Position numbers and translations under genes: made by a program
Shown here: piece after piece, positions 2,504 through 15,392 of the stretch
Numbering within the stretch: position 1 is the stretch's first letter
Layout: each line of letters starts with the position of its first letter
The notes under the pieces: generated by a model
The model's input: only the letters and a program-made list of their open reading frames with translations
Told to the model about the DNA's origin: nothing
Database searches by the model: none
Assembly (NCBI GenBank): GCA_016180425.1
Contig: JACPBF010000002.1
Location: forward strand, 48,169 to 112,168
Source of the DNA: Elusimicrobiota bacterium
GTDB lineage: Bacteria > Elusimicrobiota > Elusimicrobia > 2-02-FULL-39-32
Length of the DNA: 64,000 nucleotides
Direction: 5' to 3'

Positions 2504-2506
2504 TTA

Positions 2507-5500
2507 CTATCTCACTATTAGCCATGTGATTAGTTCAAAACTCTCCAAGTCATCCACCTGTTTTGTTTTGGGGATCACGAGGGCGCTCCGATCGGAAGTC
2601 AGCTTTTGGCTTCCACGCTTTTTAAAGACATGAACAATTTCTGAAACTGCCTTTTTGAGCAATTCAGAGTATTTTTCCATTTTTTCGCCATTGTTTGTTT
2701 CTTCATTAAAAAGCTCGCATAGTCTTTCATAGGGCTCTTTGCGCCCTTGGCTAATGAGCCGAAATATTTCCAAAATCTGTTTTGCGTTCGTGTAATTGTA
2801 CCGAACCGTATTGTCGTCACGGATATAAACGAGAAAATAGGGTTGAAGCGGGTTTACCTCTTCGTTGCCATCCGTATCACCTTTTTGCCTCAGACAGTAA
2901 ATAACGCCTGGTTTGATGATCTCTTTTTCGGTTGCCGTAAAATCATGATTAGTAATGAGGCTTGCATGTTCACCTGATGGAGAAGGAACAACCGCATATA
3001 AACCGAATGGAGCATTTTCCAGCTTTTGCCTGTTGCTTTCTAAGTAGGATAAAAGTTCTATACGAAAATCATCAAGAGTAAAATCGGTCAAGGAAACGGA
3101 TTCATTCATTTCCTCAAGATCAAGGACTTCATCACGGAGCTTTTTAAGTTGTTGGTTGCGGTATTTCAGATCATCGGAAATAAGTTCCTCAATCTGTTCT
3201 GTGTTAAGTATATTATCCTCGCCTGTGGCGGTAACATCCACCAGCGCCATACGCGCTTCAACCCGTTCTTTCAGATTGATGTAGTTATCGAGATCCTTGG
3301 TGGGCCAAAAATTTACTAGCTGAATAGCATTATTTTTGCTTCCTAACCTGTCAATGCGGCCGAAACGCTGGATAATTCGCACCGGATTCCAGTGAATATC
3401 ATAGTTAATTAAATAATCACAGTCCTGAAGGTTTTGTCCTTCGCTGATACAGTCCGTCGCTATAAGAATATCAATTTGTCCCTTTAGTGGCGCTATATTC
3501 AGTTTTGAACGGTTTTTCGACAGGGGAGAGAAGTTGGTCAGAATGCTGTCATAATCATTTTTTCCGAAGGTTGTTTGAGAGTATGAACCAGAGACAAGAG
3601 CGGATTCAAGTTTTAATTCATCTTTAATCCATTCTTTTAAATTCTTATAAAGATATTCAGCGGTGTCCGCAAAGGCGGTAAAAACTACAACTTTTTTATT
3701 GTTATTATTAAGCTGATTATTCAATTTTTTCTGAATAACCTGTTTCAACTCATGTAGTTTAGCATCCCGTTCAGGAGTTACTGCGATGGCATTGTTATAA
3801 AGATCAACTAGAGCTTCTTTGTCTGATTTAAGATCTTCGAGCCATCCTTTAGCACCTTTAAGATTTAGGTCAGCAAGATCAAACTTCAGTTTTTTTCCCA
3901 CCTGCCATGCGTCATGATCATCGGAGGATTCTTCCAATTCTTCTTCGTCTGGTTCCAGTGATTCAAGGGTTTCTTCCTGGTTTTTTGCTTTGCCGGAAAG
4001 AAAACTGTTAATTTTATCTTCGAGGTTTTCAATCTTTTTAATGGTTCTGTCCAAGGAAATTTCGAACGATTCAATCGAGCTCTCAAGCCGTTTTAAATAG
4101 TTAACTTTCATCATGCCGATCAGGAAGTGTTCACGGTCACTTTGTTTAAAGGATAGCACTCCCGATGTTGCAGCTAATTTTTCGTATTTGTCTTTCATCT
4201 CATCCTTAACATATGCGGAAGGGTTAAAGACAGACAATTTGTACCTCAGAATTTCTTTGTTCAATCGGTCATAAGTGGGAAATCTGTTTTTCAGATCAAT
4301 GGTCGGATATACAGAAACGGGTTTGAGTCGTTCCGGGAACTTTCCTATTTCCTCAATGTTATAGAAAGATTTAATATGCTTCCGACTGCGCGCGATGGTT
4401 AACTCGTCCAGCAGTTTAAAGAAAGCTGAATCAAGTCGATCAAGTAACTGTTTTAGGTTCCTTAATGGATTTTTCTTGGGATCGGCCCAATTCGTAAAAT
4501 GAGTTTGAGCATTTTTTAGCGTAAAAGCAATATCCTTGATACCGCTTGTTAATAGTAAAGCATCGTCTTTGCCTTCAGTTATCAGGGCTATCTGATTCCT
4601 CAAATCTCTAAGAGAATTATTCACGGGTGTTGCCGAAAGCATAAGCACTCTTGTTTTCACTCCAGATTTTATGACTTTTTCCATAAGCCATTTTGCCCGG
4701 TTCATTTTGATAGTGCCATCATCTTTAATTCTTTCCAAAGGGTTACCCCTGAAATTGTGCGATTCGTCTATGACAATAAGATCATACGCTCCCCAGTTGA
4801 AATTATCCATCTCAATACCGTTTGCATCTGATTTTCCACTGATTCTTCCCATATCGGTATGATAAAGAACCGTATAATTAAATCGATCTTTGACGAAAGG
4901 ATTTAGAGTATGACCTTGGCTGGCTTGATAAATCGTCCAGTTCCCCGACAGTTTTTTGGGGCAAATAACAAGAACCCTCTGATTGAGAAGCTCAAAATAC
5001 TTTATTACTGCGAGTCCTTCATAAGTTTTGCCAAGACCCACGCTATCGGCAATTACACAGCCATTATGTTTCAGGATTTTGTTGATAGCACCCTTTACTC
5101 CATCCTTTTGAAAGTCATAGAGAGTATTCCAAATTTCACTTTCAAAAAATCCGGTTCTTTCATTAAGAAGTCCACCTTTCTTCTGATCATCAAGAAAATC
5201 TTTAAATATGTGATAAAGAGTTTTAAAATAAATGAACTCCGGTTCATTCTCAGCATATAATTGTGTAATATATTTCAGTACATCCTCTTTTACATCTTGA
5301 ACAAGCCCAGTATTGTCATTCCACAAAGAATCAAACCATTGTTTTAAGTCCTGGCGGTCTCGATCACTATCGATAACCAAATTTAGTTCAATATTCTTGC
5401 TTCCACCCATGCCAAGCCCGTTGACAGTGAAGTTGGAACTGCCGATAATTGCTTTTTCCACACCGCTTGGTTGTTCGATATGGTACATTTTGCCATGCAG

Positions 5501-5854
5501 AAAATTGGGTTTTACCATAGATTTAATTTCAGCTTTATTTTTCAGCCATTCGTAGCAATCACGCGCCACCGACTTTTGTTGAAGACGGTTTGCAATGGGA
5601 ATTACAAGGGTATCGTCTTCAATTTTAAACTCGCGCTGGTTTTTCTTTTCTGGGTCAAGCACTTTTATAAAGGTGGGCTCACCAAATAGAAAGCGAAGTT
5701 TGCTGATAGGATCGAGATTTTTTTTTAAGGAATGATACGCATAAATAGTAAAGTACGCTGACACAATCGATAGTTTAGAATCATTTATAATTGCAGACTG
5801 CAAGAAATTTCCTACAGTTCCAAAATTATGATTGTCTCGGATCGATGTGCTCAT
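2507..5854 (-). CDS. PLD-nuclease domain + SNF2-like SF2 helicase
   Basis: N-terminal HGK...GSSNFT (PLD HKD-like). Helicase motifs DSVGLGKT, DESH, SATP, SEGQNLQ, QRFGRIDR. Confidence 0.9.
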   Translation of the reverse strand: MSTSIRDNHNFGTVGNFLQSAIINDSKLSIVSAYFTIYAYHSLKKNLDPISKLRFLFGEPTFIKVLDPEKKNQREFKIEDDTLVIPIANRLQQKSVARDCYEWLKNKAEIKSMVKPNFLHGKMYHIEQPSGVEKAIIGSSNFTVNGLGMGGSKNIELNLVIDSDRDRQDLKQWFDSLWNDNTGLVQDVKEDVLKYITQLYAENEPEFIYFKTLYHIFKDFLDDQKKGGLLNERTGFFESEIWNTLYDFQKDGVKGAINKILKHNGCVIADSVGLGKTYEGLAVIKYFELLNQRVLVICPKKLSGNWTIYQASQGHTLNPFVKDRFNYTVLYHTDMGRISGKSDANGIEMDNFNWGAYDLIVIDESHNFRGNPLERIKDDGTIKMNRAKWLMEKVIKSGVKTRVLMLSATPVNNSLRDLRNQIALITEGKDDALLLTSGIKDIAFTLKNAQTHFTNWADPKKNPLRNLKQLLDRLDSAFFKLLDELTIARSRKHIKSFYNIEEIGKFPERLKPVSVYPTIDLKNRFPTYDRLNKEILRYKLSVFNPSAYVKDEMKDKYEKLAATSGVLSFKQSDREHFLIGMMKVNYLKRLESSIESFEISLDRTIKKIENLEDKINSFLSGKAKNQEETLESLEPDEEELEESSDDHDAWQVGKKLKFDLADLNLKGAKGWLEDLKSDKEALVDLYNNAIAVTPERDAKLHELKQVIQKKLNNQLNNNNKKVVVFTAFADTAEYLYKNLKEWIKDELKLESALVSGSYSQTTFGKNDYDSILTNFSPLSKNRSKLNIAPLKGQIDILIATDCISEGQNLQDCDYLINYDIHWNPVRIIQRFGRIDRLGSKNNAIQLVNFWPTKDLDNYINLKERVEARMALVDVTATGEDNILNTEQIEELISDDLKYRNQQLKKLRDEVLDLEEMNESVSLTDFTLDDFRIELLSYLESNRQKLENAPFGLYAVVPSPSGEHASLITNHDFTATEKEIIKPGVIYCLRQKGDTDGNEEVNPLQPYFLVYIRDDNTVRYNYTNAKQILEIFRLISQGRKEPYERLCELFNEETNNGEKMEKYSELLKKAVSEIVHVFKKRGSQKLTSDRSALVIPKTKQVDDLESFELITWLIVR

Positions 5855-5993
5855 TTAACCACTCCATAGTTGGGCATATTTACTTTTTGTTCCGTTGTAA
5901 ACATCCGTTAATTACATCTTGATGAAACTGACAGTGTTTGCCCACCGAATGCCGGACAGCGAACCTTTCTGCGCAAGTTTATAGATAACAAAT

Positions 5994-6461
5994 TTAAAAA
6001 TTCTCACATGGCGGGTACTGTTCTGGAGCTTCCCCAAACTTTTTCAGTACAACGGGTTTTTTGTTTTTCGATCGTTTCCGCACCTCAATCAAATTTACAA
6101 AAAATTGCCAGCCATCCCCATAATCAAAGAGAAAAATTAATTTCTCGCCAGTCGTTTGAAATGCGTCACACACCTTTGACTTTTTAACGCCTCTCGCCCA
6201 CGGCACGGTGGGTTCTTCTCCCACATCCAAAAAATATTCAAAAACTATCTTTGCTTCCAGCTTTCTGTCCAACGTATCATAAAAGCCAAAACAATGATCG
6301 AAGTTAAAACCAAAGGCCTTCACAATAGTTTGAGCGAATTTATATAAAGACGCCTGCCCGTTGATTCGAATTACCCGCCGAGCAATGCCTTTATTTCCAA
6401 CTACAGAAATATCAAAAACATAATCGCTATTGGCCATTATTGCGCTGGTTTTAGATATCAC
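5994..6461 (-). CDS. pRiA4b ORF-3 / IS1096 passenger TnpR-like protein
   Basis: AFGFNFDHCFGF, FLFDYGDGWQF and GEAPEQYP motifs typical of the family. The true start may be ATG 6437. Confidence 0.75.
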   Translation of the reverse strand: MISKTSAIMANSDYVFDISVVGNKGIARRVIRINGQASLYKFAQTIVKAFGFNFDHCFGFYDTLDRKLEAKIVFEYFLDVGEEPTVPWARGVKKSKVCDAFQTTGEKLIFLFDYGDGWQFFVNLIEVRKRSKNKKPVVLKKFGEAPEQYPPCENF

Positions 6462-6503
6462 AGTTTTACCTCAGCAAAAGTTTTAAAAATCAACCGAAAA
6501 ACC

Positions 6504-6540
6504 TACCGATAATCGTACCGTAATCGTCGGTTTCTGTCAA
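6504..6540 (-). promoter_or_regulatory. sigma70 promoter overlapped by a tandem TACCG(A)TAATCG repeat (possible operator)
   Basis: TTGACA (6540-6535), 17 bp spacer, TACGAT (6517-6512). Direct repeat at 6504-6515 and 6516-6526. Confidence 0.55.
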
Positions 6541-6600
6541 TAAATTGAGGGTAGAATTAACTATAGATAGATTAAGGTTACTTAAGAGAAATGTTTATTC

Positions 6601-6867
6601 TTTTTTGAAAATTGACAAGCGCATTTTGGCAAGTGCGAGTCCATTTTTTGGGCAAGTGTAAATCCATCTTTTCAGTAGGTGCAAGTCCATCTTGGCAAGT
6701 CCAAGCCCATTCCGGCTTTTCTGTTCACGCTCGCGCTGAAAATAGGGGTTGGGCGGGAGGAATCCCCCCAAACTTCCCCCCTCAGGAAAAATTAAAGGGA
6801 TTAATTATTAAATAATAAAAATATTCAGTTTTCAATGAATAATTACTGTGTTATTTTCAGTAATTAT
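6601..6867. repeat. Inter-cassette repeat R1 (longest copy)
   Basis: TTTTGAAAA, then ~4 degenerate GGCAAGTSCAAGYCCAT units, a shared core, GGGCGGGAGGAATCCCCCCAAACTTCCCCCCTC, an AT tract and the palindrome ATAATTACTG-N9-CAGTAATTAT (6839-6867). Confidence 0.9.
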
Positions 6868-6933
6868 ATGAGTTCATTTAAAGAAAGAGGCAGAGATTAC
6901 AAGAGAATAGCTAGAGAAAAGATAGAAAAAAAC

Positions 6934-7107
6934 TTATCTGCTTAGATGAATTCTATCTTTTGTATGTAATTTTTTCCAAAGTTCGGTCTTTTGTGTATCT
7001 TCGTGGATTTTTCTTAACCGTTCTTCCATAGAGAATTTTGCATATTTTTTGTTTAATTGTTCCCGCATCTTACGCATGTATTCAACTGATTTAAATCTCT
7101 TCTCCAT
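6934..7107 (-). CDS. 57-aa putative antitoxin/partner of PIN protein 1
   Basis: Manual ORF MEKRFKSVEYMRKMREQL...HLSR with an AAGGAGGT SD. Overlaps the PIN stop. Confidence 0.7.
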   Translation of the reverse strand: MEKRFKSVEYMRKMREQLNKKYAKFSMEERLRKIHEDTQKTELWKKLHTKDRIHLSR

Positions 7108-7558
7108 ACAACACCTCCTTGGGAGAATGAATGTCTAATAAACGATACCCCTCTTTAACATTAACTCCATTGTAGGCATGAATCCTTCTAATATTTACAA
7201 TATGTTTGAAATTCCAGCTGACTAAAACATCCACATTATGAATCGTTGCAGTTGCAATGTGAAGCGCATCAACCTCTGAGTGGTCCGGAACTGCGCCGGA
7301 AGAAATATAGGCTTGGGCAAGAGACTTAGCTTCCACCGGCAGTGCAATCTGTTCTAAAAATTCATCTGGGATTTGTTCCAAAACGTTTTTAACATGTTCG
7401 GGCGCCGGTTCCAATTCCTGAATTGTCAATTCGGAAATAACAGCAATCATTTTCCCTTGTTTTATTTTTTCAAATAGGGCAATAGAATCTAACTTAAATT
7501 CTGGGTCAAAACAGCCCCCAATAACCGAAGTATCAATGTATACTCTAAGCTTATGCAT
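7091..7558 (-). CDS. PIN-domain (VapC-like) ribonuclease toxin 1
   Basis: VYIDTSV, DALHIATA, LVSWNFKHIVN. Promoter TTGATT(7598-7593)-17-TATAAT(7575-7570). Confidence 0.88.
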   Translation of the reverse strand: MHKLRVYIDTSVIGGCFDPEFKLDSIALFEKIKQGKMIAVISELTIQELEPAPEHVKNVLEQIPDEFLEQIALPVEAKSLAQAYISSGAVPDHSEVDALHIATATIHNVDVLVSWNFKHIVNIRRIHAYNGVNVKEGYRLLDIHSPKEVLYGEEI

Positions 7559-7604
7559 GTTCTACTTTTATTATAGCCTCTAATACCTTAGAAATCAATT
7601 CATA

Positions 7605-7663
7605 AACTATACTAGTTGGCTGTGTCCTAAACTGTGTCCCATGAAGGGATATTTTGGGATATT
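7605..7663. repeat. Arm-like repeat A1 (GCTGTGTCCTAAACTGTGTCC)
   Basis: Tandem TGTGTCC with 12-bp period. About 59 bp is similar to 11520-11578, and the core recurs at 7900-7920. Confidence 0.8.
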
Positions 7664-7780
7664 TGCTGATCACTTATGATACCTTAAGATTAGTCAAAAA
7701 TGATGAGCTCTTAGACGGTGAAACCGGATTTTCTTCAACATCCGACGAAGCTGCGCAAACCTTCAAAAACAGCCAAAATC

Positions 7781-7821
7781 CGATTAAGAGTCGCTTGCTC
7801 TGCCAATTGAGCTAACAGCCC
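7781..7821 (-). pseudogene. 5' half of tRNA-Lys(CTT), att-like fragment
   Basis: GGGCTGT TA GCTC AATTGGCA GAGC A AGCGA CTCTTAA TCG: acceptor 5' strand, D arm and anticodon loop. Similarity then stops, and I saw no T arm or 3' acceptor strand in the window. Confidence 0.85.
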
Positions 7822-7899
7822 GAATGAATTAAGTTAATGCAGTAAAGATGTTACAAAAAATATATAAGAAGTTCTAGAATCAGATTAAAACAAAACGGA

Positions 7900-7920
7900 G
7901 CTGTGTCCTAAAATGTGTCC
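7900..7920. repeat. Arm-like repeat A2 (GCTGTGTCCTAAAATGTGTCC)
   Basis: 20/21 identical to the A1 core, same orientation, on the other side of the tRNA half. Confidence 0.8.
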
Positions 7921-7940
7921 TTCGGTGGGTTTATTTTTAG

Positions 7941-8690
7941 CTACACCTTTCCCCATAGATTAGTTTCTAGAAAACGTATTTCCTCAAACGCCAAAATAGC
8001 ATCTTGAGCCATAAGAAAACATTTCCAAACAAATTTATCGCTCATATAAATGATATGGGGATTACCATCTGATTTTGACCAATTAAAATAATCTATCCAG
8101 TTTTTATCCTCAATTAATTTTAAAAATCTTACCCGCTTATCTTTAGGCCATTCGTAACCGTTGTGAAGGGAAAAATTGCGATAAGTGATTAACGCACCAA
8201 GATACTTTAGAAAATCAGCTGGCAATTTAGATTCGATTCCCAGCGCGTTTACTAACTGATGTGTACCACGCATAATATTATTGGATGAGTTAATTTGCGA
8301 ATTTCTATCCAATACTTTACGTGGGTCCCAAAAATTCATTGGTTCAAGATGCCAACGGTTATGAGAATTAAGTGGTTTACGCGACCGATAGAACACCCTT
8401 AAGCATTTGAACTCATGTATAAGAAGGCTTTCAAAAAAAGAAGCAAGCACCCCAACCATAGCAAGACTACATACAACATCACGAAACTTGGACTCATGCA
8501 TCATTTCAACATATTCCTCTACATTATGATCTGTCCAGTTTCCTATAAAAGAAGGTTCCTTTATTTCAGCATTCAGATTATTTCGCCAACTATATATGGA
8601 ATGTACAAGTCCATGAATTGCAACCAAAGAATATTGGGGATCATAATCCATCGCATCCATCAATTCATTTATTTGAATTTGCTCATCCAT
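7941..8690 (-). CDS. Hypothetical protein with HEPN-like RxxxxH motif
   Basis: YRNFSLHNG motif in a helical protein. Start moved to ATG 8690 because the track's 5' extension contains TTGACA(8729-8724)-17-TAGGAT(8706-8701). Confidence 0.6.
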   Translation of the reverse strand: MDEQIQINELMDAMDYDPQYSLVAIHGLVHSIYSWRNNLNAEIKEPSFIGNWTDHNVEEYVEMMHESKFRDVVCSLAMVGVLASFFESLLIHEFKCLRVFYRSRKPLNSHNRWHLEPMNFWDPRKVLDRNSQINSSNNIMRGTHQLVNALGIESKLPADFLKYLGALITYRNFSLHNGYEWPKDKRVRFLKLIEDKNWIDYFNWSKSDGNPHIIYMSDKFVWKCFLMAQDAILAFEEIRFLETNLWGKV

Positions 8691-8779
8691 AGTAGCGATA
8701 ATCCTACAGCAATCATCGGTCTCTGTCAACAAACTCTAGCAAGTAATTTGGGTCAATAATAATCAATTTATTTCATAGA

Positions 8780-8909
8780 TTTTGAGAAACGGACGAGCCC
8801 ATCTTGGCAAGTCCAAGCCCATTCCGGATTTTCTGTTCACGCTTGCGCTGGACATAGTGGTTGGGCGGGAGGAATCCCCCCAAACTTCCCCCCTCAGGGA
8901 AAATTTAAA
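8780..8909. repeat. Inter-cassette repeat R2 (short copy, lacks terminal palindrome)
   Basis: CCCATCTTGGCAAGTCCAAGCCCATTCCGG...GGGCGGGAGGAATCCCCCCAAACTTCCCCCCTCAGG, near-identical to the R1/R3 core. Confidence 0.9.
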
Positions 8910-9004
8910 CAGGTAATATTGATTTTTACAGAGAGATTTTTAGCGAGATTTAAATATGGGAAAGTGTCGGGCTGCTTGTACAGATAGGGCGTAAAGACTT
9001 TATA

Positions 9005-9178
9005 TCAGGTTTTTGAATGTTCAAGTTTTCTTAGTTTTAGACCTAATCTTTTCTCGGCCTCTTCGGCACTGCGACGAATGGCCTCAAGTTCCTCTTTCGT
9101 ACTCATATTCTTACGCTCTTCGTATATTTTTTCTTGAATCTGATGTATCTCTCTCATCGGTCTGGGTTCATTCAGCAT
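9005..9178 (-). CDS. 57-aa putative antitoxin/partner of PIN protein 2
   Basis: Manual ORF MLNEPRPMREIHQIQEKIYEE...HSKT. Overlaps the PIN stop. Confidence 0.7.
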   Translation of the reverse strand: MLNEPRPMREIHQIQEKIYEERKNMSTKEELEAIRRSAEEAEKRLGLKLRKLEHSKT

Positions 9179-9644
9179 CCTCTATTACCTCCTGTGGCGA
9201 AACAATCTCCATCTCCTTATAGCCATTTAAAAGATTTATTCCTCTTACTTCTCTTTTTGTTTTTACTTTAACCATGTGGGAAAAATTCCAACTAACAATC
9301 ACATCTAAATCATTGACAGTTGCAACAGCAATATGTAAAGCATCGTCCTTATATCTAGGAGGTATAACCCCGTTTTCTACATATTTATTTGCCAACTCCA
9401 CTGAATCTTCGTTAAGTAACAACTCAACAGCATTTAATTTCATTAAAACTTCTTTTAGCTCTATTGCAATAAGTTGTGGAGCGCGGCCAATTTCATCAGT
9501 AACGACACTGGATACAAAAACTTCATATTTCCCTTGTTCAACTTCTCTAAATAACTTTAAGGTAGCATCTTTTTCATTAGGCACATCCGTAGCTATCGCA
9601 AAATTCAAAACAGAGGTGTCAAAGTAAAGCTTTAGCTTCTTCAT
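9168..9644 (-). CDS. PIN-domain toxin 2
   Basis: LYFDTSV, DDALHIAVA, VSWNFSHMV. Extended -10 TGaTATAAT 12 nt upstream of the ATG. Confidence 0.88.
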   Translation of the reverse strand: MKKLKLYFDTSVLNFAIATDVPNEKDATLKLFREVEQGKYEVFVSSVVTDEIGRAPQLIAIELKEVLMKLNAVELLLNEDSVELANKYVENGVIPPRYKDDALHIAVATVNDLDVIVSWNFSHMVKVKTKREVRGINLLNGYKEMEIVSPQEVIEDAE

Positions 9645-9746
9645 TGGAATATAGCTATTATATCACCTCTATTCTAAAAATAACATCAGAACCATAAATA
9701 GTCAATCCCAGTTGTTTATCCTGTTGTTCATGCCAATTTGGCTCTC

Positions 9747-9947
9747 TTTTTTGAAAATGGCAAGCCCATCTTGGCAAGTCCAAGCCCATTCCGGCTTTTC
9801 TGCTCACGCTCGCGCTGGACATAGTGGTTGGGCGGGAGGGTTCCCCCCAAACTTCCCCCCCTCGGGGAAATTTAAAGGGACCATTATTTAAATAATGAAT
9901 CTATTCGGTTTAGAATACATAATTACTGTATTATTTCCAGTAATTAT
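9747..9947. repeat. Inter-cassette repeat R3
   Basis: Same core as R1/R2 plus the palindrome ATAATTACTG-N9-CAGTAATTAT at 9919-9947. Confidence 0.9.
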
Positions 9948-9983
9948 AAGGATTTAAGAAAATGTTTTCAGAAAAATATTTGT

Positions 9984-10259
9984 TTAAGCAGGCACTACCC
10001 TGGCATTTTCTGGAACGATCATAAGTTTCGAATGCAACACTTTAGCCATTTTCTCGTATGTGCTAATAAGATGATCGGAATCCTTCTTTTCCAAGCGGGA
10101 AATATGCGCTTGTTTCAACCTCAATTTAGCTGCAATTTCTTCTTGAGAAATACCGTAAGCACGCCTGAGTATGGCCATCTGAATCGGAAGCGGTTCATCG
10201 GCAATCGCTTCAAAATAAGCTTGCGCATATTTAGAATCGTGTTTGATTTTATTTTGCAC
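9984..10259 (-). CDS. XRE/HigA-like HTH antitoxin (orphan)
   Basis: LRRAYGISQEEIAAKLRLKQAHISRLE HTH. The frame extends to ATA 10295, which follows a GGAGG SD. Confidence 0.8.
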   Translation of the reverse strand: MQNKIKHDSKYAQAYFEAIADEPLPIQMAILRRAYGISQEEIAAKLRLKQAHISRLEKKDSDHLISTYEKMAKVLHSKLMIVPENARVVPA

Positions 10260-10356
10260 ATCTTTATCAAATGGTGAACTATTTTTATGTTTTATTTTAT
10301 TACCTCCACCACGTAAAAACTAATTCTCGGGCAGGAGTAATGATCTAAGGATGAAT

Positions 10357-10518
10357 TTAACGTTTCTTTACACCTTTGTAAGAACTTGGTTCGTCCTTTT
10401 GACTCCAATACGCAGCAACTTCTTTAGGAGTTTTCCCCTTCAATTCATTTGTGATTTCTTCTCGAATTTTGTGAATTTCATCCAAAACTCTAGAATGATG
10501 TGTTAAAGTCTTAGACAC
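10357..10518 (-). CDS. 53-aa putative antitoxin/partner of PIN protein 3
   Basis: Manual ORF (GTG start) MSKTLTHHSRVLDEIHKIREEI...KKR. Shares the EIHxI(R/Q)E motif with the 9005-9178 protein. Confidence 0.65.
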   Translation of the reverse strand: MSKTLTHHSRVLDEIHKIREEITNELKGKTPKEVAAYWSQKDEPSSYKGVKKR

Positions 10519-10984
10519 TTTCAATCACCTCCTCGGGTGTGGCAATATCTATAGCTTTAAAATTCTTCCTTTCATTTAATTCACGAATAGCAATACGGGC
10601 TTTAGGGTTTGCTAAGTGTTCCATATTCCAGGTAACCACAACATCAAGATTGTTTAGAGTTGCAATGGCCACGCGCAATGCATCCGGTTCAAATTTGGCG
10701 GGGATAATTTTATGATGAATATATTCTCTCGCCAACTCCTCACAAGGAGCGGAAACAGGTAGTCTTTCAATCCCATCCAATGCTCTCAATAAATTGTTTC
10801 TGTGGCTTTCATTTCGTGTGCGATTAATTTCCACAATGACTGCATCCGATGTAAAAACTTCAAATTTATGCAATTTTAAAATGTCAAAAAAACGCTTGGT
10901 TATATCCCGTTCTTCAGGCGCATCATCAGCGTATACGAAGTTAGGAATTGTGGTCTCAAGATAAATTTTAAGTTTTCTTTCCAT
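10511..10984 (-). CDS. PIN-domain toxin 3
   Basis: IYLETTIP, DALRVAIA, VTWNMEHLAN. Confidence 0.85.
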   Translation of the reverse strand: MERKLKIYLETTIPNFVYADDAPEERDITKRFFDILKLHKFEVFTSDAVIVEINRTRNESHRNNLLRALDGIERLPVSAPCEELAREYIHHKIIPAKFEPDALRVAIATLNNLDVVVTWNMEHLANPKARIAIRELNERKNFKAIDIATPEEVIESV

Positions 10985-11062
10985 AACTTAATGTAACATA
11001 CAATCGCCGTATTTGCACGGCTTAATTCTTAATCCTTGATGTCGCATATGTATCGTAACTTA

Positions 11063-11216
11063 TTCACCAGACGCCTTTCTGATTTTTTCACAAGTGATAG
11101 GTCTCATCTTACGCATATATTCAACTGCTTCAAATATCTTCTCCATACAAAACCTCCTTGGAAGGAACATCGGCTAATTCTTTTTGCGCTCTAGCAGCGA
11201 TCAGAACTTTATACAT
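11063..11216 (-). pseudogene. Chimeric RelE N-terminus/PIN C-terminus remnant plus truncated partner gene
   Basis: 11216-11130 reads MYKVLIAARAQKELADVPS|KEVLYGEDI*. 11105-11162 is similar to 7066-7122. The remnant ORF MEKIFEAVEYMRKMR... ends early at 11063. Confidence 0.7.
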
Positions 11217-11224
11217 GAAAAACT

Positions 11225-11458
11225 CTAGGCGGATTTTCTTTTTTCACTAAAGAATTCAATCGCTTCAACAGCCCGTTTGGGGTTTCTTTTGTGTTCAACT
11301 CTGGCCTGCTTTGCCAATTGAATATCTTTAAGATCCTCTTTATAGACTCTTTCTACAGCTTCCCTTAATAACTCTGCCATTGATACATTGTGATCCAATG
11401 CCATGTACTTCAGGTTTTTATGAACCTCATCGGGTAAGAAAATAGTTGTGCGTTTCAT
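11225..11458 (-). CDS. CopG/RHH-family antitoxin
   Basis: MKRTTIFLPDEVHKNLK...VSMAELLREAV RHH pattern. SD GGAGGTGA. Promoter TGGACA-17-TATACT (11512-11484) with CATA repeats in the spacer. Confidence 0.8.
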   Translation of the reverse strand: MKRTTIFLPDEVHKNLKYMALDHNVSMAELLREAVERVYKEDLKDIQLAKQARVEHKRNPKRAVEAIEFFSEKRKSA

Positions 11459-11519
11459 TGAGTATCACCTCCTGACTCAAATGAGTATAGCATACATACA
11501 TATATATGTCCATCTAGCG

Positions 11520-11578
11520 AACTATATTAGTTGGCTGTGTCCTAAACTGTGACCCATGGAGGGAACTTTTGGGATATT
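11520..11578. repeat. Arm-like repeat A3, likely right boundary of the island
   Basis: ACTATATTAGTTGGCTGTGTCCTAAACTGTGACCCATGGAGGG...GGGATATT matches 7605-7663. Confidence 0.8.
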
Positions 11579-11781
11579 CAAGGAGTTCTAGAATAGAGAA
11601 TTGACTGGTTGAGACGTCCGCAGGGATGGTTGTTTTAAATGGTGCTTTATCTCCTTACTTATTTATGAATTTAATATGGTTAAAATGAATCAGGTTTCTA
11701 CCATTGATTCTAGCCGGCATACTAACCTTAAAATTGGACCTTCTTAAGCACAAAATAAGAAACTGTTAATTAAAAAGAATC

Positions 11782-12918
11782 TTAGAGGATGGTTTTGCCT
11801 GACTCAGGGTCAAAGAGATGGATGGTTTCCATGTTGAACACAAGGTCAATGTCTTGCTGTTGTTTGGCGGAGTTGTGCGGCTCTACCCTGGCTACAAAAT
11901 TATTTTTCCCTGTGTTTAAATAAAGATATTTTTCAGAGCCCATGGGTTCCACCACCTCTATGGTTGCTTTTACTGAGGAACCTTCGCTAAAGCCTCCAGA
12001 ATGAAAAAGTTTGTCATAGATGTTTTCTGGCCGTATGCCAAAAATCACTTTTTTTCCAACGTAAGATTTTACAATTTCATTCATTTCTGGAATCAATTTA
12101 ATTTGCATGCCATTGGAGCTAACTTGCGGATCGTTTTCTCTTAGCCAAATCCCTTTAGCTTCACCTTGCAATTTTTCTGAAATATAAACTTCCACAAAAT
12201 TCATAGGCGGAGATCCAATAAATCCAGCTACAAATCTGTTAGAAGGGCTGTTATAAAGTTCTAAGGGGGCTGCAATTTGCTGCACATCCCCATCTTTCAT
12301 CACGCAAATTCTGTCCCCCATGGTCATGGCTTCTACCTGATCATGGGTCACATAAATCATGGTGGTCTGCAAGCGGTCGTGCAGTTTAGAAAGTTCCATT
12401 CTCATTTGAACCCGTAGTTTAGCGTCTAAATTGCTAAGAGGCTCATCAAATAAAAATACTTTGGGTTTTCTTACAATCGCTCGTCCAACAGCCACTCTTT
12501 GCCTTTGTCCCCCAGAAAGCTCTTTTGGTTTTCTATGCATCAGGTTAGACATGTTTAAAATTTCCGCTGCTTCTTTTACCCTGTCCTGAATTTCTTTTTT
12601 AGAGTAGCCTCTTAATTTTAAGCCAAAAGCCATGTTTTCATAAACTGTCATGTGCGGGTAAAGAGCGTAATTTTGGAAAACCATGGCGATATCTCTATCT
12701 TTGGGAGGAACATCATTTACTTTTTTTCCTCCAATCCAAATCTCACCGTCGCTACCTTCTTCCAGTCCCGCGATCATGCGCAAAGTGGTTGATTTGCCGC
12801 ATCCAGATGGGCCCACTAGAACAAAAAATTCTTTATCTGGTATTTCTATATTCACCCCTTTTACAGCAGCTGTTCCGTCATACCTTTTCCAAACATTTTT
12901 TAAAATCACTTCTGCCAC
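11782..12918 (-). CDS. Sugar ABC transporter ATP-binding protein (MalK/MsmK/UgpC family)
   Basis: GPSGCGKST, LSGGQRQRVA, FDEPLSNLDA, C-terminal TOBE region. Confidence 0.95.
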   Translation of the reverse strand: MAEVILKNVWKRYDGTAAVKGVNIEIPDKEFFVLVGPSGCGKSTTLRMIAGLEEGSDGEIWIGGKKVNDVPPKDRDIAMVFQNYALYPHMTVYENMAFGLKLRGYSKKEIQDRVKEAAEILNMSNLMHRKPKELSGGQRQRVAVGRAIVRKPKVFLFDEPLSNLDAKLRVQMRMELSKLHDRLQTTMIYVTHDQVEAMTMGDRICVMKDGDVQQIAAPLELYNSPSNRFVAGFIGSPPMNFVEVYISEKLQGEAKGIWLRENDPQVSSNGMQIKLIPEMNEIVKSYVGKKVIFGIRPENIYDKLFHSGGFSEGSSVKATIEVVEPMGSEKYLYLNTGKNNFVARVEPHNSAKQQQDIDLVFNMETIHLFDPESGKTIL

Positions 12919-12950
12919 GATTCTCTCACCTCCCTAAAAATGTATTTTGG

Positions 12951-15392
12951 TTAATTAAAATTAATAATAAAATTTTCTTCTGCCTTTTTTACAATGGATT
13001 TAGGGAGTGTATCCCCGGGCAATGTTTTGTCATTAAAAATAATAGCCACGCTATTTTTGCCAAGATTTTTGTCTCTTTTAAAATGAAAAGCGCAACTTTT
13101 GCCATTGTAAATTCTTTTTACTTTAAACTCGTCCCAATCTTTAGGAACACAAGGCGCAATTTTTAAACCTTCCCATTCAGCTCTAATTCCAATGATCCAT
13201 TCTAACATAATTCTATAAAGCCAAGCAGCTGAACCTGTGTACCAAGTCCATCCACCCCTGCCATAATAAGGAGAGTCCGGCCCATCCACGTTCCCTGGGG
13301 TTACATAAGGTTCAGACATGTATAGGTCTGGATCCATTCCCCTTTCTATGGGAGAAATTTTTTTGAACAATTGCCATGCGGTCTGGCTGCGCTTTAAAAA
13401 ACATTCCATCTGAATTGCCCAAATACCGGCATGGGTATAAAGCCCGCCATTTTCTCTTACTCCAGAAGCATAGCGGGTCAAATATCCTATTCGTTCATCC
13501 GGTATTTTATAAGCTGGATAAAGCAGCAAGGGTCCATAATCTTTATAAAGATTTTTTTCCAGAGAATCTAAAAGAGTGGTTAAATTTTTTTCAGGCACCA
13601 TTTTGTTTAAGACTGCCCAAGTTTGAGGGTTGAGATGAATTTTTCCTTCTTTAGATTTTTTGCTGCCTATGAGGGAGCCATCATCACAACTTGCAGCCCA
13701 GTACCATTGGCCGTCCCAGCCAAATTTGTTTACAGCTTCATAGAGTTTTTCCGCTTCTTTTTTATACCTTGCGATTTTTTTACTTTCAGAGGAAGAAAGA
13801 GTTTTATTTTTAATGGCTCTGGCAATGAGTTCGCAAAACTCATTTAAAATTCCATAAAGAAACTGTCCTACCCAAATGCTTTCCCCTTTTTCTTCCCAAC
13901 CAGCTACAGATAACCCATCATTCCAATCCCCTGTCCCAATTAAAGGAAGTCCGCGCTTACTTTTGCGCTTAAGAGAATTTTCAATTGCCAAAACACAATG
14001 CTGATATACTGAAGCAGGAGACGCTTCTTTTTTATTTTCCTCTTTAAGAAATGGAGTTTTTTCTTTTAAGATAGAAAAATCTCCTGTTTCTTTTAAATAG
14101 TTAATGGCGACAAAGGGGAGCCAGAGCAAATCATCTGAATATCTGGATTTATGGCCATCATTGGTGATGGGGTGCCACCAGTGATGCACAATGCCTGAAG
14201 AATATTGATGAGAGGCATGGAGGAGAATTTGATTTTTGGTTCTTTTGGGCTCAAGGTGAAGAAAGATTTGGCTGTCTTGCAGCTGATCTCTATAGCCAAA
14301 AGCGCCCCCTGCCTGATAATAGCCTGTTCTTCCCCAGATGCGTGCTGAAAGAGCCTGATATTTTAGCCACCAGTTTCCTAAAAGATTAAAGGAAGAATCC
14401 GGAGTTTCTACATTAGATTTTTCTAAATAGCTTTGCCAAAATTGAATGGTATTTTGAAACGCTTGATCTACATTATTTTGCTCTTTATATTTTAAAGCTA
14501 GATTTCTCGCTTCATTCTTATTTTTTGCAGCGCCCAGTGTCCAAAGAACTGTTTTAGTTTCTCCGGGCAAAAGCTCAATTTCAGAACAAAGGCTGGCAAT
14601 AGAATCGTCCCACTTACCAGTGGTTTTGCCGGTATAAGAGCCTGTAAGCAAAGCATTTGGGTTTTGAAAACCATGATATTTTCCAATAAAAGAATCTTTA
14701 TTGCCGGAAGAATCTTTTAAACGCAGGTTAGTTCCATGCCAGGCTAAATAATCCCAAGATTTATTCCAATGCTGCCCTTTAGCATTGGCAATGGTCCAAA
14801 GTCTTTTTGAGGCATAGAGGATTCCATTGTCTTTATCAGATTCTGTTTCTAAAAAGGTGCGGTGAAATTCTCTATGGCTGTCTGGGGATTCCCCTAAGCA
14901 CCATTCAAAATAGCTCCAGAGGCTTAAAATTCTTTTCTGGCTAGAATGATTAGTAATTTTTAGCTGCCAGATTTCTAAAGGCTCTTTAGGAGGGACAAAA
15001 ATGGTTAGCTCTGAGGAAATGGAAAAATTAAGAGAGATAAATCGGGTGTAGCCAAAACCATGATGACATTCATAATGTTCTGGTGTATGGCACACAGGCT
15101 TCCATGTTGGAGACCAGAACTCTCCAGATTCTTGATCTCTTATATAAATATATTTTCCCCAATCATCGCAAACTAAATCTTGATTCCAACGAGTAATGCG
15201 ATTTAAACTAGCATGGGTTCTCCAAGAATAACCTGAGCCGGATTGGGTAATGACTAAACCATAATCCCCAGGACAAATGACATTGGACCAAGGACGGGGC
15301 GTATCTGGGCGAGTGATGACAAATTCTTTGCCATCCTCGCTAAAATAACCATAGTTTGTTTTAAATAATTCTAGCTTTTCCTTCATAAACAT
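12951..15392 (-). CDS. GH94 glycoside phosphorylase
   Basis: TPRPWSN, GAFGYRDQLQD, GDWNDGL, RENGGLYTH, WYTGSAAW. Confidence 0.92.
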   Translation of the reverse strand: MFMKEKLELFKTNYGYFSEDGKEFVITRPDTPRPWSNVICPGDYGLVITQSGSGYSWRTHASLNRITRWNQDLVCDDWGKYIYIRDQESGEFWSPTWKPVCHTPEHYECHHGFGYTRFISLNFSISSELTIFVPPKEPLEIWQLKITNHSSQKRILSLWSYFEWCLGESPDSHREFHRTFLETESDKDNGILYASKRLWTIANAKGQHWNKSWDYLAWHGTNLRLKDSSGNKDSFIGKYHGFQNPNALLTGSYTGKTTGKWDDSIASLCSEIELLPGETKTVLWTLGAAKNKNEARNLALKYKEQNNVDQAFQNTIQFWQSYLEKSNVETPDSSFNLLGNWWLKYQALSARIWGRTGYYQAGGAFGYRDQLQDSQIFLHLEPKRTKNQILLHASHQYSSGIVHHWWHPITNDGHKSRYSDDLLWLPFVAINYLKETGDFSILKEKTPFLKEENKKEASPASVYQHCVLAIENSLKRKSKRGLPLIGTGDWNDGLSVAGWEEKGESIWVGQFLYGILNEFCELIARAIKNKTLSSSESKKIARYKKEAEKLYEAVNKFGWDGQWYWAASCDDGSLIGSKKSKEGKIHLNPQTWAVLNKMVPEKNLTTLLDSLEKNLYKDYGPLLLYPAYKIPDERIGYLTRYASGVRENGGLYTHAGIWAIQMECFLKRSQTAWQLFKKISPIERGMDPDLYMSEPYVTPGNVDGPDSPYYGRGGWTWYTGSAAWLYRIMLEWIIGIRAEWEGLKIAPCVPKDWDEFKVKRIYNGKSCAFHFKRDKNLGKNSVAIIFNDKTLPGDTLPKSIVKKAEENFIINFN

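Follow-up and report, generated by a model that had tools for sequence, protein, structure and literature searches.

An integron-like array of putative toxin-antitoxin modules in a groundwater Elusimicrobia genome lies at the edge of a tRNA-Lys integration hot spot and contains a repeat that may be an origin-of-transfer-like site

The DNA studied here, referred to below as the window, is a stretch of 64,000 nucleotides (nt) from an Elusimicrobiota bacterium (assembly GCA_016180425.1, contig JACPBF010000002.1, positions 48,169 to 112,168). The genome, from a groundwater member of the Elusimicrobia (2.6 Mb, 98.5% complete), is called G000. Between positions 5994 and 11578, the window carries an array of genes, many of them putative toxin-antitoxin genes and all on the minus strand, that alternates with three copies of a short repeat, R, all on the plus strand. 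This array forms that edge of a tRNA-Lys integration hot spot which lies away from the integrase. We propose, with a probability of about 0.5, that it arose by tandem accretion of tRNA-targeting elements and that R is a cis-acting, origin-of-transfer (oriT)-like site shared by such elements. According to this proposal, related elements would integrate successively and site specifically into the 5' half of a tRNA gene, older elements would decay to remnants resembling cis-mobilizable elements (CIMEs), and near-identical copies of R and of a second repeat, O, would permit module swaps by homologous recombination. The genome, in which the window lies on contig C22, was compared with a sister genome, G001, and with G003, which represents another genus of the same family.

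The array straddles the boundary of a tRNA-Lys island

A self-comparison extending past the window revealed a perfect 42-nt direct repeat at 7781 to 7822 and again 17.7 kb to the left (L055 10033 to 10074). The left copy is part of an intact tRNA-Lys(CTT) gene (L055 10001 to 10073), of which it covers the 5' 41 nt, and it abuts genes for a tyrosine integrase (L055:10029-11150; PF00589, 1.1e-28) and an excisionase-like HTH_17 protein. Window positions 1 to 13000 contain no complete tRNA gene according to ARAGORN. A tyrosine integrase at a tRNA gene, a direct repeat of that tRNA at the far end, and a content that differs between relatives thus mark this DNA as a tRNA-targeting integrative island. 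Its features at the boundary are as follows.

1 to 7822, minus strand: right part of the 17.7-kb integrative defence island, which starts outside the window at -9936 (G000:C22:38232)
7605 to 7663, no strand assigned: O1, a copy of the second repeat family, with a tandem octamer, between the attachment (att) repeat and PIN1 (repeat families D6 and D7)
7781 to 7822, minus strand: att direct repeat, the displaced 5' part of tRNA-Lys and boundary of the island (42 nt, 100%)
7900 to 7929, no strand assigned: O2', a motif that resembles O and lies upstream of the displaced piece of tRNA (repeat family D7)
11520 to 11578, no strand assigned: O3, a copy of O1 (92%) that borders a conserved ABC ATPase gene at the end of the variable region (family D6)

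Since the 42-nt repeat bounds the island at 7781 to 7822, the array straddles the island boundary, with R1 and PIN1 inside and R2 and R3 beyond it. In the island cargo, PADLOC matched a DRT UG6 reverse transcriptase, a nitrilase, a DnaG-like protein, and HKD+Snf2; the cargo further includes a type IIG restriction-modification fragment, a pRiA4b-like gene, R1, the PIN1 pair, and O1. The defence reverse transcriptase system within the island (L055 12944 to 18125, G000:C22) consists of a 1097-amino-acid (aa) UG6-type reverse transcriptase, the nitrilase, and a DnaG-like primase, and its neighbours are a DUF6998 gene that is split and a type IIG restriction-modification gene that is truncated.

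G001 has the same integrase and excisionase genes (89% DNA identity), the same tRNA, and the same O1 end with its tRNA fragment, and the cargo between them is entirely different. The DNA beyond the boundary (7823 to 11750, with a 263-aa gene, R2, PIN2, R3, a helix-turn-helix [HTH] gene, PIN3, a ribbon-helix-helix [RHH] gene, and O3) is also variable between the sister genomes, and here, too, the layout is O, toxin-antitoxin genes, and R. Synteny resumes at 11752, in the ABC ATPase gene next to the third O copy. A preliminary description of the array, made from the letters of the window, had asked whether the cargo between R copies varies in relatives, and the comparison with G001 shows that it does. 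It had also placed a recombinase outside the window. Such a gene, for a tyrosine integrase, indeed lies ~8.8 kb to the left of position 1, but the sites with which it is associated are the 42-nt tRNA-Lys repeats and not R. O, with its tandem octamer, is found on both sides of the tRNA-Lys att repeat (including L055 ~10128 to 10146) and again where the variable region ends; the O copies may be arm-type sites of the integrase or an operator.

An integrase-less mini-element in a tRNA-Met gene

A second unit of this kind is present on contig C18 of G000, where a perfect 41-nt direct repeat with a spacing of 1193 nt equals the 5' part of tRNA-Met(CAT). The 1.19-kb element encloses only a PIN_3 gene, its partner gene, and a short open reading frame (ORF) and has no integrase. 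Its site is empty in G001, where the tRNA gene is intact and without insertion; this is the only empty site seen. The C18 unit is an integrase-less, att-flanked mini-element and corresponds to what has been described as a CIME (PMC5704250). In all three elements, the PIN gene starts 177 to 258 nt from the att repeat. Just past the displaced tRNA-Met fragment lies a copy of R, followed by more toxin-antitoxin genes, in a stretch that is again variable between the sister genomes. With an array that straddles an att boundary and a 1.19-kb integrase-less element whose site is empty in the sister genome, the suggestion that the array is a stack of miniature non-autonomous elements largely stands. 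DNA upstream of the C18 PIN gene (L059 5657 to 5892, G000:C18) has matches of 77 to 97% on contigs C4 and C25 of G001, which suggests further copies of this mini-element family there.

R is a modular repeat with one conserved hairpin

The copies of R in the window, and the palindrome that ends the first of them, are as follows.

6601 to 6867, plus strand: R1, long form, with iterons at ~6602 to 6715, the core hairpin at 6747 to 6773, and a C-rich tail to 6781 (covariance-model match 6658 to 6799, 149 bits)
6839 to 6848 and 6858 to 6867: arms of the 10-bp palindrome in which the AT-rich arm of R1 ends
8780 to 8909, plus strand: R2, short form (covariance-model match 8767 to 8911, 133.8 bits)
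9747 to 9947, plus strand: R3, long form (covariance-model match 9737 to 9878, 133.8 bits)

A repeat search recovered a 130-nt core in three direct copies (6668 to 6797, 8780 to 8909, and 9747 to 9876). The three same-orientation copies that had been reported to separate co-oriented modules are therefore real, and their cores are 84.7 to 88.5% identical pairwise, whereas the PIN and small-gene modules of the window share 52.0 to 54.5% identity at the DNA level and 29.8 to 37.4% at the protein level. Because the R cores are far more alike than the PIN modules, the repeat exceeds what chance or plain co-duplication would leave. R is thus constrained, recently spread, or homogenized and not a remnant of duplicated spacer.

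From left to right, R is built of a palindromic first unit, one to five iterons of ~22 nt, a variable stretch, a hairpin, and a tail. R1 has an additional iteron block (6602 to 6645), and R1 and R3 have a 105-nt extension in common (6764 to 6868 versus 9844 to 9948, 79%); an AT-rich arm ending in a 10-bp palindrome is present in R1, R3, and one copy of G001. The stem of the hairpin is an invariant G/C stem of 9 to 11 bp with a variable loop, the C-rich 9-nt tail that follows it is invariant in 8 of 10 aligned copies, and the core is invariant even in diverged copies.

The preliminary description had called the repeat structured, and this applies to the hairpin but not to the element as a whole. 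In an alignment that was fitted to the covariance model and is therefore biased toward structure, 90.6% of the hairpin cells pair, and compensatory changes occur in three of nine pairs, a value reached by 20 of 500 shuffles. However, when four copies were folded as single-stranded DNA on both strands, the whole element folded no better than shuffled sequences (z, -0.06 to -1.49), and its ends did not pair with each other, so that local hairpins only were obtained. In agreement with what had been claimed, R is not attC-like, since it has no end-to-end hairpin, and terminal inverted repeats of the insertion sequence type do not bound any copy. A cmscan of positions 5000 to 13000 against Rfam gave no match to R; the sole match at an E value of ≤1 was an unrelated one, Rhino_CRE (E, 0.19), outside R.

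Several other identities of R were ruled out or dropped. It is not a coding sequence, as the open frames differ between copies and the copies differ by indels, and it is not a tRNA remnant, given the result of the ARAGORN scan mentioned above. A CRISPR was dropped because of the gene-sized spacing, a type III toxin-antitoxin RNA array because R is antisense to the PIN genes of the array, a single-strand promoter of a leading region because there is no long hairpin, and Tn7-like ends because there is no inverted partner end.

R occurs at few loci, and modules have probably been exchanged around it

A profile search combined with the covariance model found six R loci in G000, mostly beside toxin-antitoxin genes. 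Three are the window copies; the others are as follows.

C2:11121-11261: ~300 nt upstream of tRNA-Thr
C18:55890-56021: between the fourth PIN pair and a zeta-toxin gene
C23:14076-14208: 60 nt upstream of a DUF1016 gene

In G001, R is present four times, with one copy split, and in G003 once. The covariance model did not find R in nine other genomes of the family, and a BLAST search of 41 related genomes gave matches in G000 and G001 only. The exact 19-nt core, for which we estimate ~4 chance matches at uniform base composition, was present in 10 stretches of public genome contigs, three of which belong to G001, while the seven from other phyla are alike over ~19 to 21 nt only. Among metagenome contigs, it was present in 32 stretches: six are true R copies (five duplicate G001 loci and one is new, L051), and 26 are unrelated C-rich sequences. 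R was also absent from 80 of 80 loci of the array's PIN family in other phyla (nhmmer, E value of ≤1), and it is therefore not part of the toxin-antitoxin module itself. By these comparisons, R is a lineage-specific unit of its own. As had been expected for a mobile array, R is linked to cargo, matches none of the known families with which it was compared, and is found in a gene order that is not fixed in relatives.

The solo copies of G000 and G001 are at non-orthologous places with unrelated flanks. One G001 copy, R_b, is a mosaic, with a left part that is 92.6% like R1 and a right part that is 94% like R2. PIN2, its partner gene, R2, and the 75 nt that precede PIN2 (8794 to 9719) form a unit with a counterpart of 94% identity in G001, which there stands on the opposite side of the tRNA fragment, and the slot between O1 and R, which holds PIN1 in G000, holds the PIN2 pair in G001. 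The mosaic R_b and the alternation of PIN1 and PIN2 in one slot support an exchange of modules.

Three further observations were made at R loci. At the C2 locus, an Rfam scan matched tRNA-Thr only, and directly upstream of this tRNA-Thr(GGT) gene, in an AT-rich setting, lies a G+C-rich stretch of ~190 nt (L004 1731 to 1919; G000:C2 ~11371 to 11559) without an Rfam match at an E value of ≤0.1; it may be an undescribed structured RNA that is cotranscribed with the tRNA. On G001:C20 (L011 8645 to 11923), an R copy is interrupted by a 3.4-kb element, with a TT dinucleotide at both junctions; the element encodes a 714-aa large serine recombinase, a 95-aa protein, a 226-aa HTH protein, and a DUF5372 protein. 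At L051 (1687 to 1742), a metagenome contig, a ~50-nt stretch where a 545-aa gene starts matches five scattered G000 sites (C2, C22, C3, C10, and C5) at 82 to 92%; this is either a further short repeat of the dispersed type or a coding motif conserved at the N terminus.

R stands beside conjugation genes in two genomes

On contig C13 of G001, R follows genes for a type IV coupling protein, a ParE/DUF6290 pair, and proteins of 245, 299, and 173 aa. In G003, homologous genes of 317, 122, and 157 aa, with counterparts of the 299-aa and 173-aa genes among them, are immediately followed by an R-like copy (88.6 bits); the coupling protein was thus seen in one of the two related genomes in which R is beside a conjugation module. 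Since this neighbourhood recurs in two genomes, R is read as an origin-of-transfer-like nick site. Its hairpin, invariant tail, and iterons, shared with a conjugative element, make it resemble an oriT that has been borrowed by hitch-hikers. If so, R is probably a discrete cis-acting DNA site held in common with the conjugative element and not a site of cassette recombination. It would let both integrase-bearing islands and integrase-less mini-elements hitch-hike on a conjugative element, and the toxin-antitoxin pairs would stabilize the hitch-hiking elements.

Two proteins are of interest with respect to DNA processing. The 299-aa family is rare, with 12 matches among 1.84 billion representatives; its predicted model combines a winged helix with a restriction-endonuclease-like domain, and language-model features place it near Replic_Relax clusters. 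For this protein, a word-indexed search gave itself and one relative, a PDB sequence search gave nothing meaningful, and a scan of loci gave G001 only. For the small neighbouring protein of the conjugative element (147 aa), the top VIA-align rows of the predicted model are HUH nickases, namely, SIRV1 ORF119 (Z, 8.6), minute virus of mice (MVM) NS1 (Z, 8.1), adeno-associated virus (AAV) Rep (Z, 6.7), and Helitron (Z, 6.7). A more far-reaching version of the proposal, which we regard as possible but put forward only tentatively, is that R is the nick site or transfer origin of an undescribed conjugative DNA-processing system made up of a histidine-less HUH-like protein and a winged-helix/PD-(D/E)XK-like partner. 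Such a system would serve, in groundwater Elusimicrobia, a graded series of minimal hitch-hikers that consist of an att site in a tRNA 5' half, an origin, and toxin-antitoxin genes, that range from 1.2-kb mini-elements to 18-kb islands, and that are stacked in integron-like arrays.

A second type of conjugative element in these genomes bears a G/C hairpin that differs from that of R and is followed by a similar motif (L154 10108 to 10160, G000:C2; L162 ~700 to 760, G001:C5). This hairpin occupies the place of R, right after a homologue of 301 aa and an 83-aa gene.

PIN modules and other genes of the array

The remaining genes and gene relics of the array, together with a defence gene next to it, are as follows.

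2507 to 5854, minus strand: HKD(PLD)+SNF2 helicase, island cargo and candidate defence gene (Pfam PLDc_2, SNF2-rel_dom, and Helicase_C; PADLOC HKD+Snf2, 1.1e-128)
5994 to 6461, minus strand: pRiA4b ORF-3-like gene (PRiA4_ORF3, PF07929; E, 4.3e-12)
6934 to 7107, minus strand: 57-aa partner gene of PIN1, downstream of PIN1 and overlapping it
7091 to 7558, minus strand: PIN1, putative toxin (PF01850, 24.0 bits, cutoff 23.6; 61% identity to the PIN protein of contig C18)
7941 to 8732, minus strand: 263-aa gene without a family match
9005 to 9178, minus strand: 57-aa partner gene of PIN2
9168 to 9644, minus strand: PIN2 (PF01850, 28.3 bits)
9984 to 10259, minus strand: HTH_3 protein, orphan HigA-like antitoxin (PF01381, 1.5e-7)
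10357 to 10524, minus strand: 55-aa partner gene of PIN3
10511 to 10984, minus strand: PIN3, a diverged PIN (PF01850, 17.4 bits, under the 23.6-bit cutoff; alignable with the other PINs)
11105 to 11178, minus strand: relic of a PIN1-like/partner-gene junction (84 to 90% identity to 7066 to 7139)
11225 to 11458, minus strand: RHH (RelB/CopG-like) gene (Antitox_RHH, 1.2e-5; RHH_1; NCBIfam RelB_antitoxin, 2.3e-6, below its cutoff)

The pRiA4b, PIN1, PIN2, HTH, and RHH genes named in the preliminary description were confirmed by Pfam, and PIN3, at 17.4 bits, can be aligned with the other PINs. The 263-aa gene has no match in Pfam, NCBIfam, or PADLOC; the label HEPN that it had been given rests on an Rx4H motif seen by eye and on a weak atlas lead (0.84, unnamed clusters). 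The region around the HTH_3 gene (9804 to 10308) is 88% identical in G001 by BLAST, and there a Gp49/HigB-like gene (PF05973, 4.1e-11) precedes it. Promoter-like sites lie upstream of the RHH, PIN1, PIN2, and pRiA4b-like genes; these are consensus matches only (28 versus 18.1 ± 4.4 in shuffled sequences). Elsewhere in the window, the minus strand from 45824 to 63886 is taken up by a single ORF of 6020 aa, a giant gene.

The PIN family of the array has 555 relatives in many phyla; such relatives occur in many bacterial and archaeal phyla, at ~50 to 59% identity. A small ORF lies downstream of the PIN gene in 71 of 78 loci from other phyla. The small partner gene has a conserved N-terminal motif, follows rather than precedes the PIN gene nearly always, and matched no antitoxin family in Pfam or NCBIfam. 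The DNA-binding antitoxin gene upstream of the PIN gene that is expected of a VapC-like pair was not found, as the partner is downstream. The modules are like VapBC-type PIN pairs in that a PIN protein of ~155 aa is encoded with a small overlapping gene, that they are located on mobile DNA, and that they are widely exchanged, but they differ in their reversed gene order, with a downstream partner that lacks a family match; the roles of toxin and antitoxin are therefore putative.

DISCUSSION

Observations that weigh against accretion and a shared oriT-like site

A number of findings speak against the proposed history. Only two copies of the 42-nt tRNA-Lys repeat are present in the genome, where at least three att copies would mark a tandem; for this reason, the older units are recognized by their layout and by the similarity of O3 to O1 (92%) and not by surviving att sites. 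The neighbourhoods of R2, R3, and O3 yielded no eroded tRNA fragment, and the R copies of the array do not lie at att boundaries. Excised or circular forms were not seen in Logan contigs of four DNA runs, but these contigs break at every repeat, at R as well as at the tRNA repeat, the 42-nt repeat being longer than the assembly word. Two apparent deletions in them, a joint from 6667 to 8858 and a pair from 6667 to 6741, were ruled out as such, since they are other R copies that span two window copies. Moreover, the comparison covers three genomes of one family, and these relatives are not independent.

The interpretation of R as an oriT-like site meets objections of its own. There is no relaxase of a known family in G000, from which PF03432 is absent, and neither the 299-aa nor the 147-aa protein has a Pfam or NCBIfam match. 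The HUH-like fold of the latter is weak: Z values of 6.5 to 8.6 are "middling" according to the note of the tool, generic ferredoxin-like folds are mixed in among the matches, Foldseek gave no match for the model at an E value of ≤0.001, and the family has no histidines at the HUH position. The resemblance of the 299-aa protein to Replic_Relax is one of language-model features only. Furthermore, R faces one way relative to the conjugation genes in G001 and the other way in G003, the conjugative element of G000 itself (C2:88-102 kb) has no R, and the 147-aa gene was not found in G000. If R is a transfer origin, the helper would thus have to come from outside. Finally, three direct copies within 3.3 kb are unnecessary for transfer.

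Other explanations of R

The preliminary description considered an integron-like system in which a dedicated recombinase moves cassettes of one or more genes plus R, with R acting as attC does. The topology fits this idea, as R comes after each module on the coding strand, the C18 copy lies between two toxin-antitoxin modules, and the unit of R2, the partner gene, and PIN2 keeps a whole R and ends at an iteron boundary, abutting an iteron boundary of R3 in G000 and lying elsewhere in G001. The element at the TT dinucleotide inside a G001 copy shows that R can be the target of a serine recombinase, but this insertion is a single event. On the other hand, the demonstrable boundaries are tRNA-derived repeats and not R, R lacks the end-to-end dyad symmetry of attC and folds no better than shuffled sequences, and an integron integrase is absent: a search of the whole genome with TIGR02249 gave no match over the 265-bit cutoff, the best score being 73.6 bits, with eight partial matches from four ordinary tyrosine recombinase genes. 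In addition, the modules have their own promoter-like sites, R also occurs singly, beside conjugation genes and DUF1016, and no Logan contig joins R copies newly, which is weak evidence, as it comes from contigs only. We therefore consider a cassette system very unlikely, and the claim that R is its recombination site is not supported. A second possibility is that R is an element like the repetitive extragenic palindromic (REP) sequences, bacterial interspersed mosaic elements (BIMEs), or miniature inverted-repeat transposable elements (MITEs), copied in trans by the 147-aa HUH-type protein, so that its position beside toxin-antitoxin genes reflects an insertion preference or tolerance. This would account for the discrete boundaries, the unrelated flanks, the solo copies at non-orthologous loci, and the occurrence of R in either orientation relative to its neighbours. 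R also has a variable number of iterons and a modular build, and BOX elements and BIMEs are modular as well. In two genomes, R adjoins, in opposite orientation, a gene whose product has weak HUH-nickase fold matches, and the structures matched by the 147-aa protein include a REP-associated tyrosine transposase (Z, 5.6). However, six, four, and one copies per genome are very low numbers, and the copies cluster in mobile, toxin-antitoxin, or defence DNA instead of being dispersed over ordinary intergenic DNA. No terminal inverted repeats bound any copy, and no target duplications were found in seven copies aligned with their flanks. A Y1 transposase is lacking (PF01797, no match in G000; 6 of 14 control genomes match), as is a homologue of the 147-aa protein in G000. 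On balance, a trans-copied element is unlikely.

R could also be a local regulatory, terminator, or insulator cassette or a cluster of operators that is carried passively, is gene converted, and has no role in mobility. It is always intergenic, usually at the 3' end of one module and on the 5' side of the next; its palindromic first iteron and direct iterons resemble protein-binding sites, and -10-like hexamers, recognized by eye, follow the core in several copies, the one that precedes the DUF1016 gene of C23 by 60 nt being perfect. The mosaic copies testify to gene conversion or recombination. A terminator role, however, is at odds with the lack of a T run after the hairpin on either strand, and the terminator scan listed 6620 to 6637 and 6703 to 6718, within the iterons of R1, and nothing at the core hairpin. 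Nor is the orientation of R relative to the flanking genes consistent, R is missing at the 80 PIN-family loci from other phyla, and the copies beside conjugation genes in two genera are left unexplained. A purely regulatory R is thus doubtful. Iterons, a GC hairpin, and, in the long form, an AT-rich palindrome region are also reminiscent of replication origins, and the 147-aa protein has weak fold matches that include pMV158 RepB, parvoviral NS1, and AAV Rep, so that R might serve rolling-circle or plasmid-like replication of excised elements. The short form and the solo copies have no AT-rich arm, though, and the protein evidence is as weak as that for a transfer origin. We regard a replication origin as improbable, but it is not exclusive of a transfer origin; in some conjugative elements, one nickase serves both replication and transfer.

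Relation to known mobile elements

Accretion of tRNA-targeting elements that share an oriT-like R would combine processes of known kinds, namely, tandem accretion, CIMEs, and oriT-only islands. Tandem accretion at tRNA genes is described for streptococcal tandems of integrative mobilizable elements and CIMEs and for ICESt1-related elements (PMC5704250). The array resembles these in having a tyrosine integrase at a tRNA gene, tRNA-derived direct repeats, integrase-less att-flanked remnants, and a stacked, variable content. It differs in that the tRNA 5' part (41 to 42 nt) is used and the integrase abuts the restored tRNA, whereas the cases described there mostly concern the 3' end (PMC5704250). 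Here, moreover, the host is an uncultured member of the Elusimicrobia, the older units have no att repeats, and the units are marked by R. The oriT-only islands (iOriT), like mobilizable genomic islands that imitate the oriT of a helper, are a close parallel, and they are reported to have defence genes near oriT (bioRxiv 10.64898/2026.01.13.699239). The likeness extends to the presence of an integrase, the lack of relaxase and mating-pore genes, and a short noncoding sequence in common with the DNA-processing region of a conjugative element (bioRxiv 10.64898/2026.01.13.699239). Unlike those islands, the units studied here involve no relaxase of a known MOB family, have rare, unannotated processing proteins, contain R in tandem, in part outside delimited islands, and are known from sequence alone.

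Chromosomal integrons, or super-integrons, such as those with Vibrio repeats, carry toxin-antitoxin cassettes. The array shares with them the co-oriented modules, many of them toxin-antitoxin modules, that alternate with a similar repeat of ~130 nt 3' of each module, but it has no IntI, no attC dyad symmetry, promoter-like sites at its modules, and att boundaries derived from tRNAs. REP and BIME elements, with their REP-associated tyrosine transposases (RAYTs), and BOX elements are short intergenic repeats with a conserved hairpin and variable subunits. R is likewise short, intergenic, and modular, its hairpin is conserved, and it may depend on a small protein of the HUH type; unlike them, it is present in one to six copies per genome, is confined to mobile or toxin-antitoxin DNA, and goes without a match to a Y1 or RAYT family. 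The new aspects are the host lineage, integration into the 5' half of a tRNA, the 1.2-kb element that contains toxin-antitoxin genes only, R itself, and the possible new pair of DNA-processing proteins.

If accretion around a shared, oriT-like R is the correct explanation, arrays that look like those of integrons can form in the absence of one, through tiny elements with toxin-antitoxin genes and defence islands that stack at a tRNA gene and have in common a short cis signal taken from a conjugative element. The concepts of oriT-only "hitcher" islands and of CIME accretion would then also apply to an uncultured phylum whose mobile elements are barely described, and the rare, unannotated protein pair would be a possible new type of relaxase. 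The 42-nt and 41-nt tRNA repeats, together with R, are markers with which mobile DNA can be delimited in these genomes.

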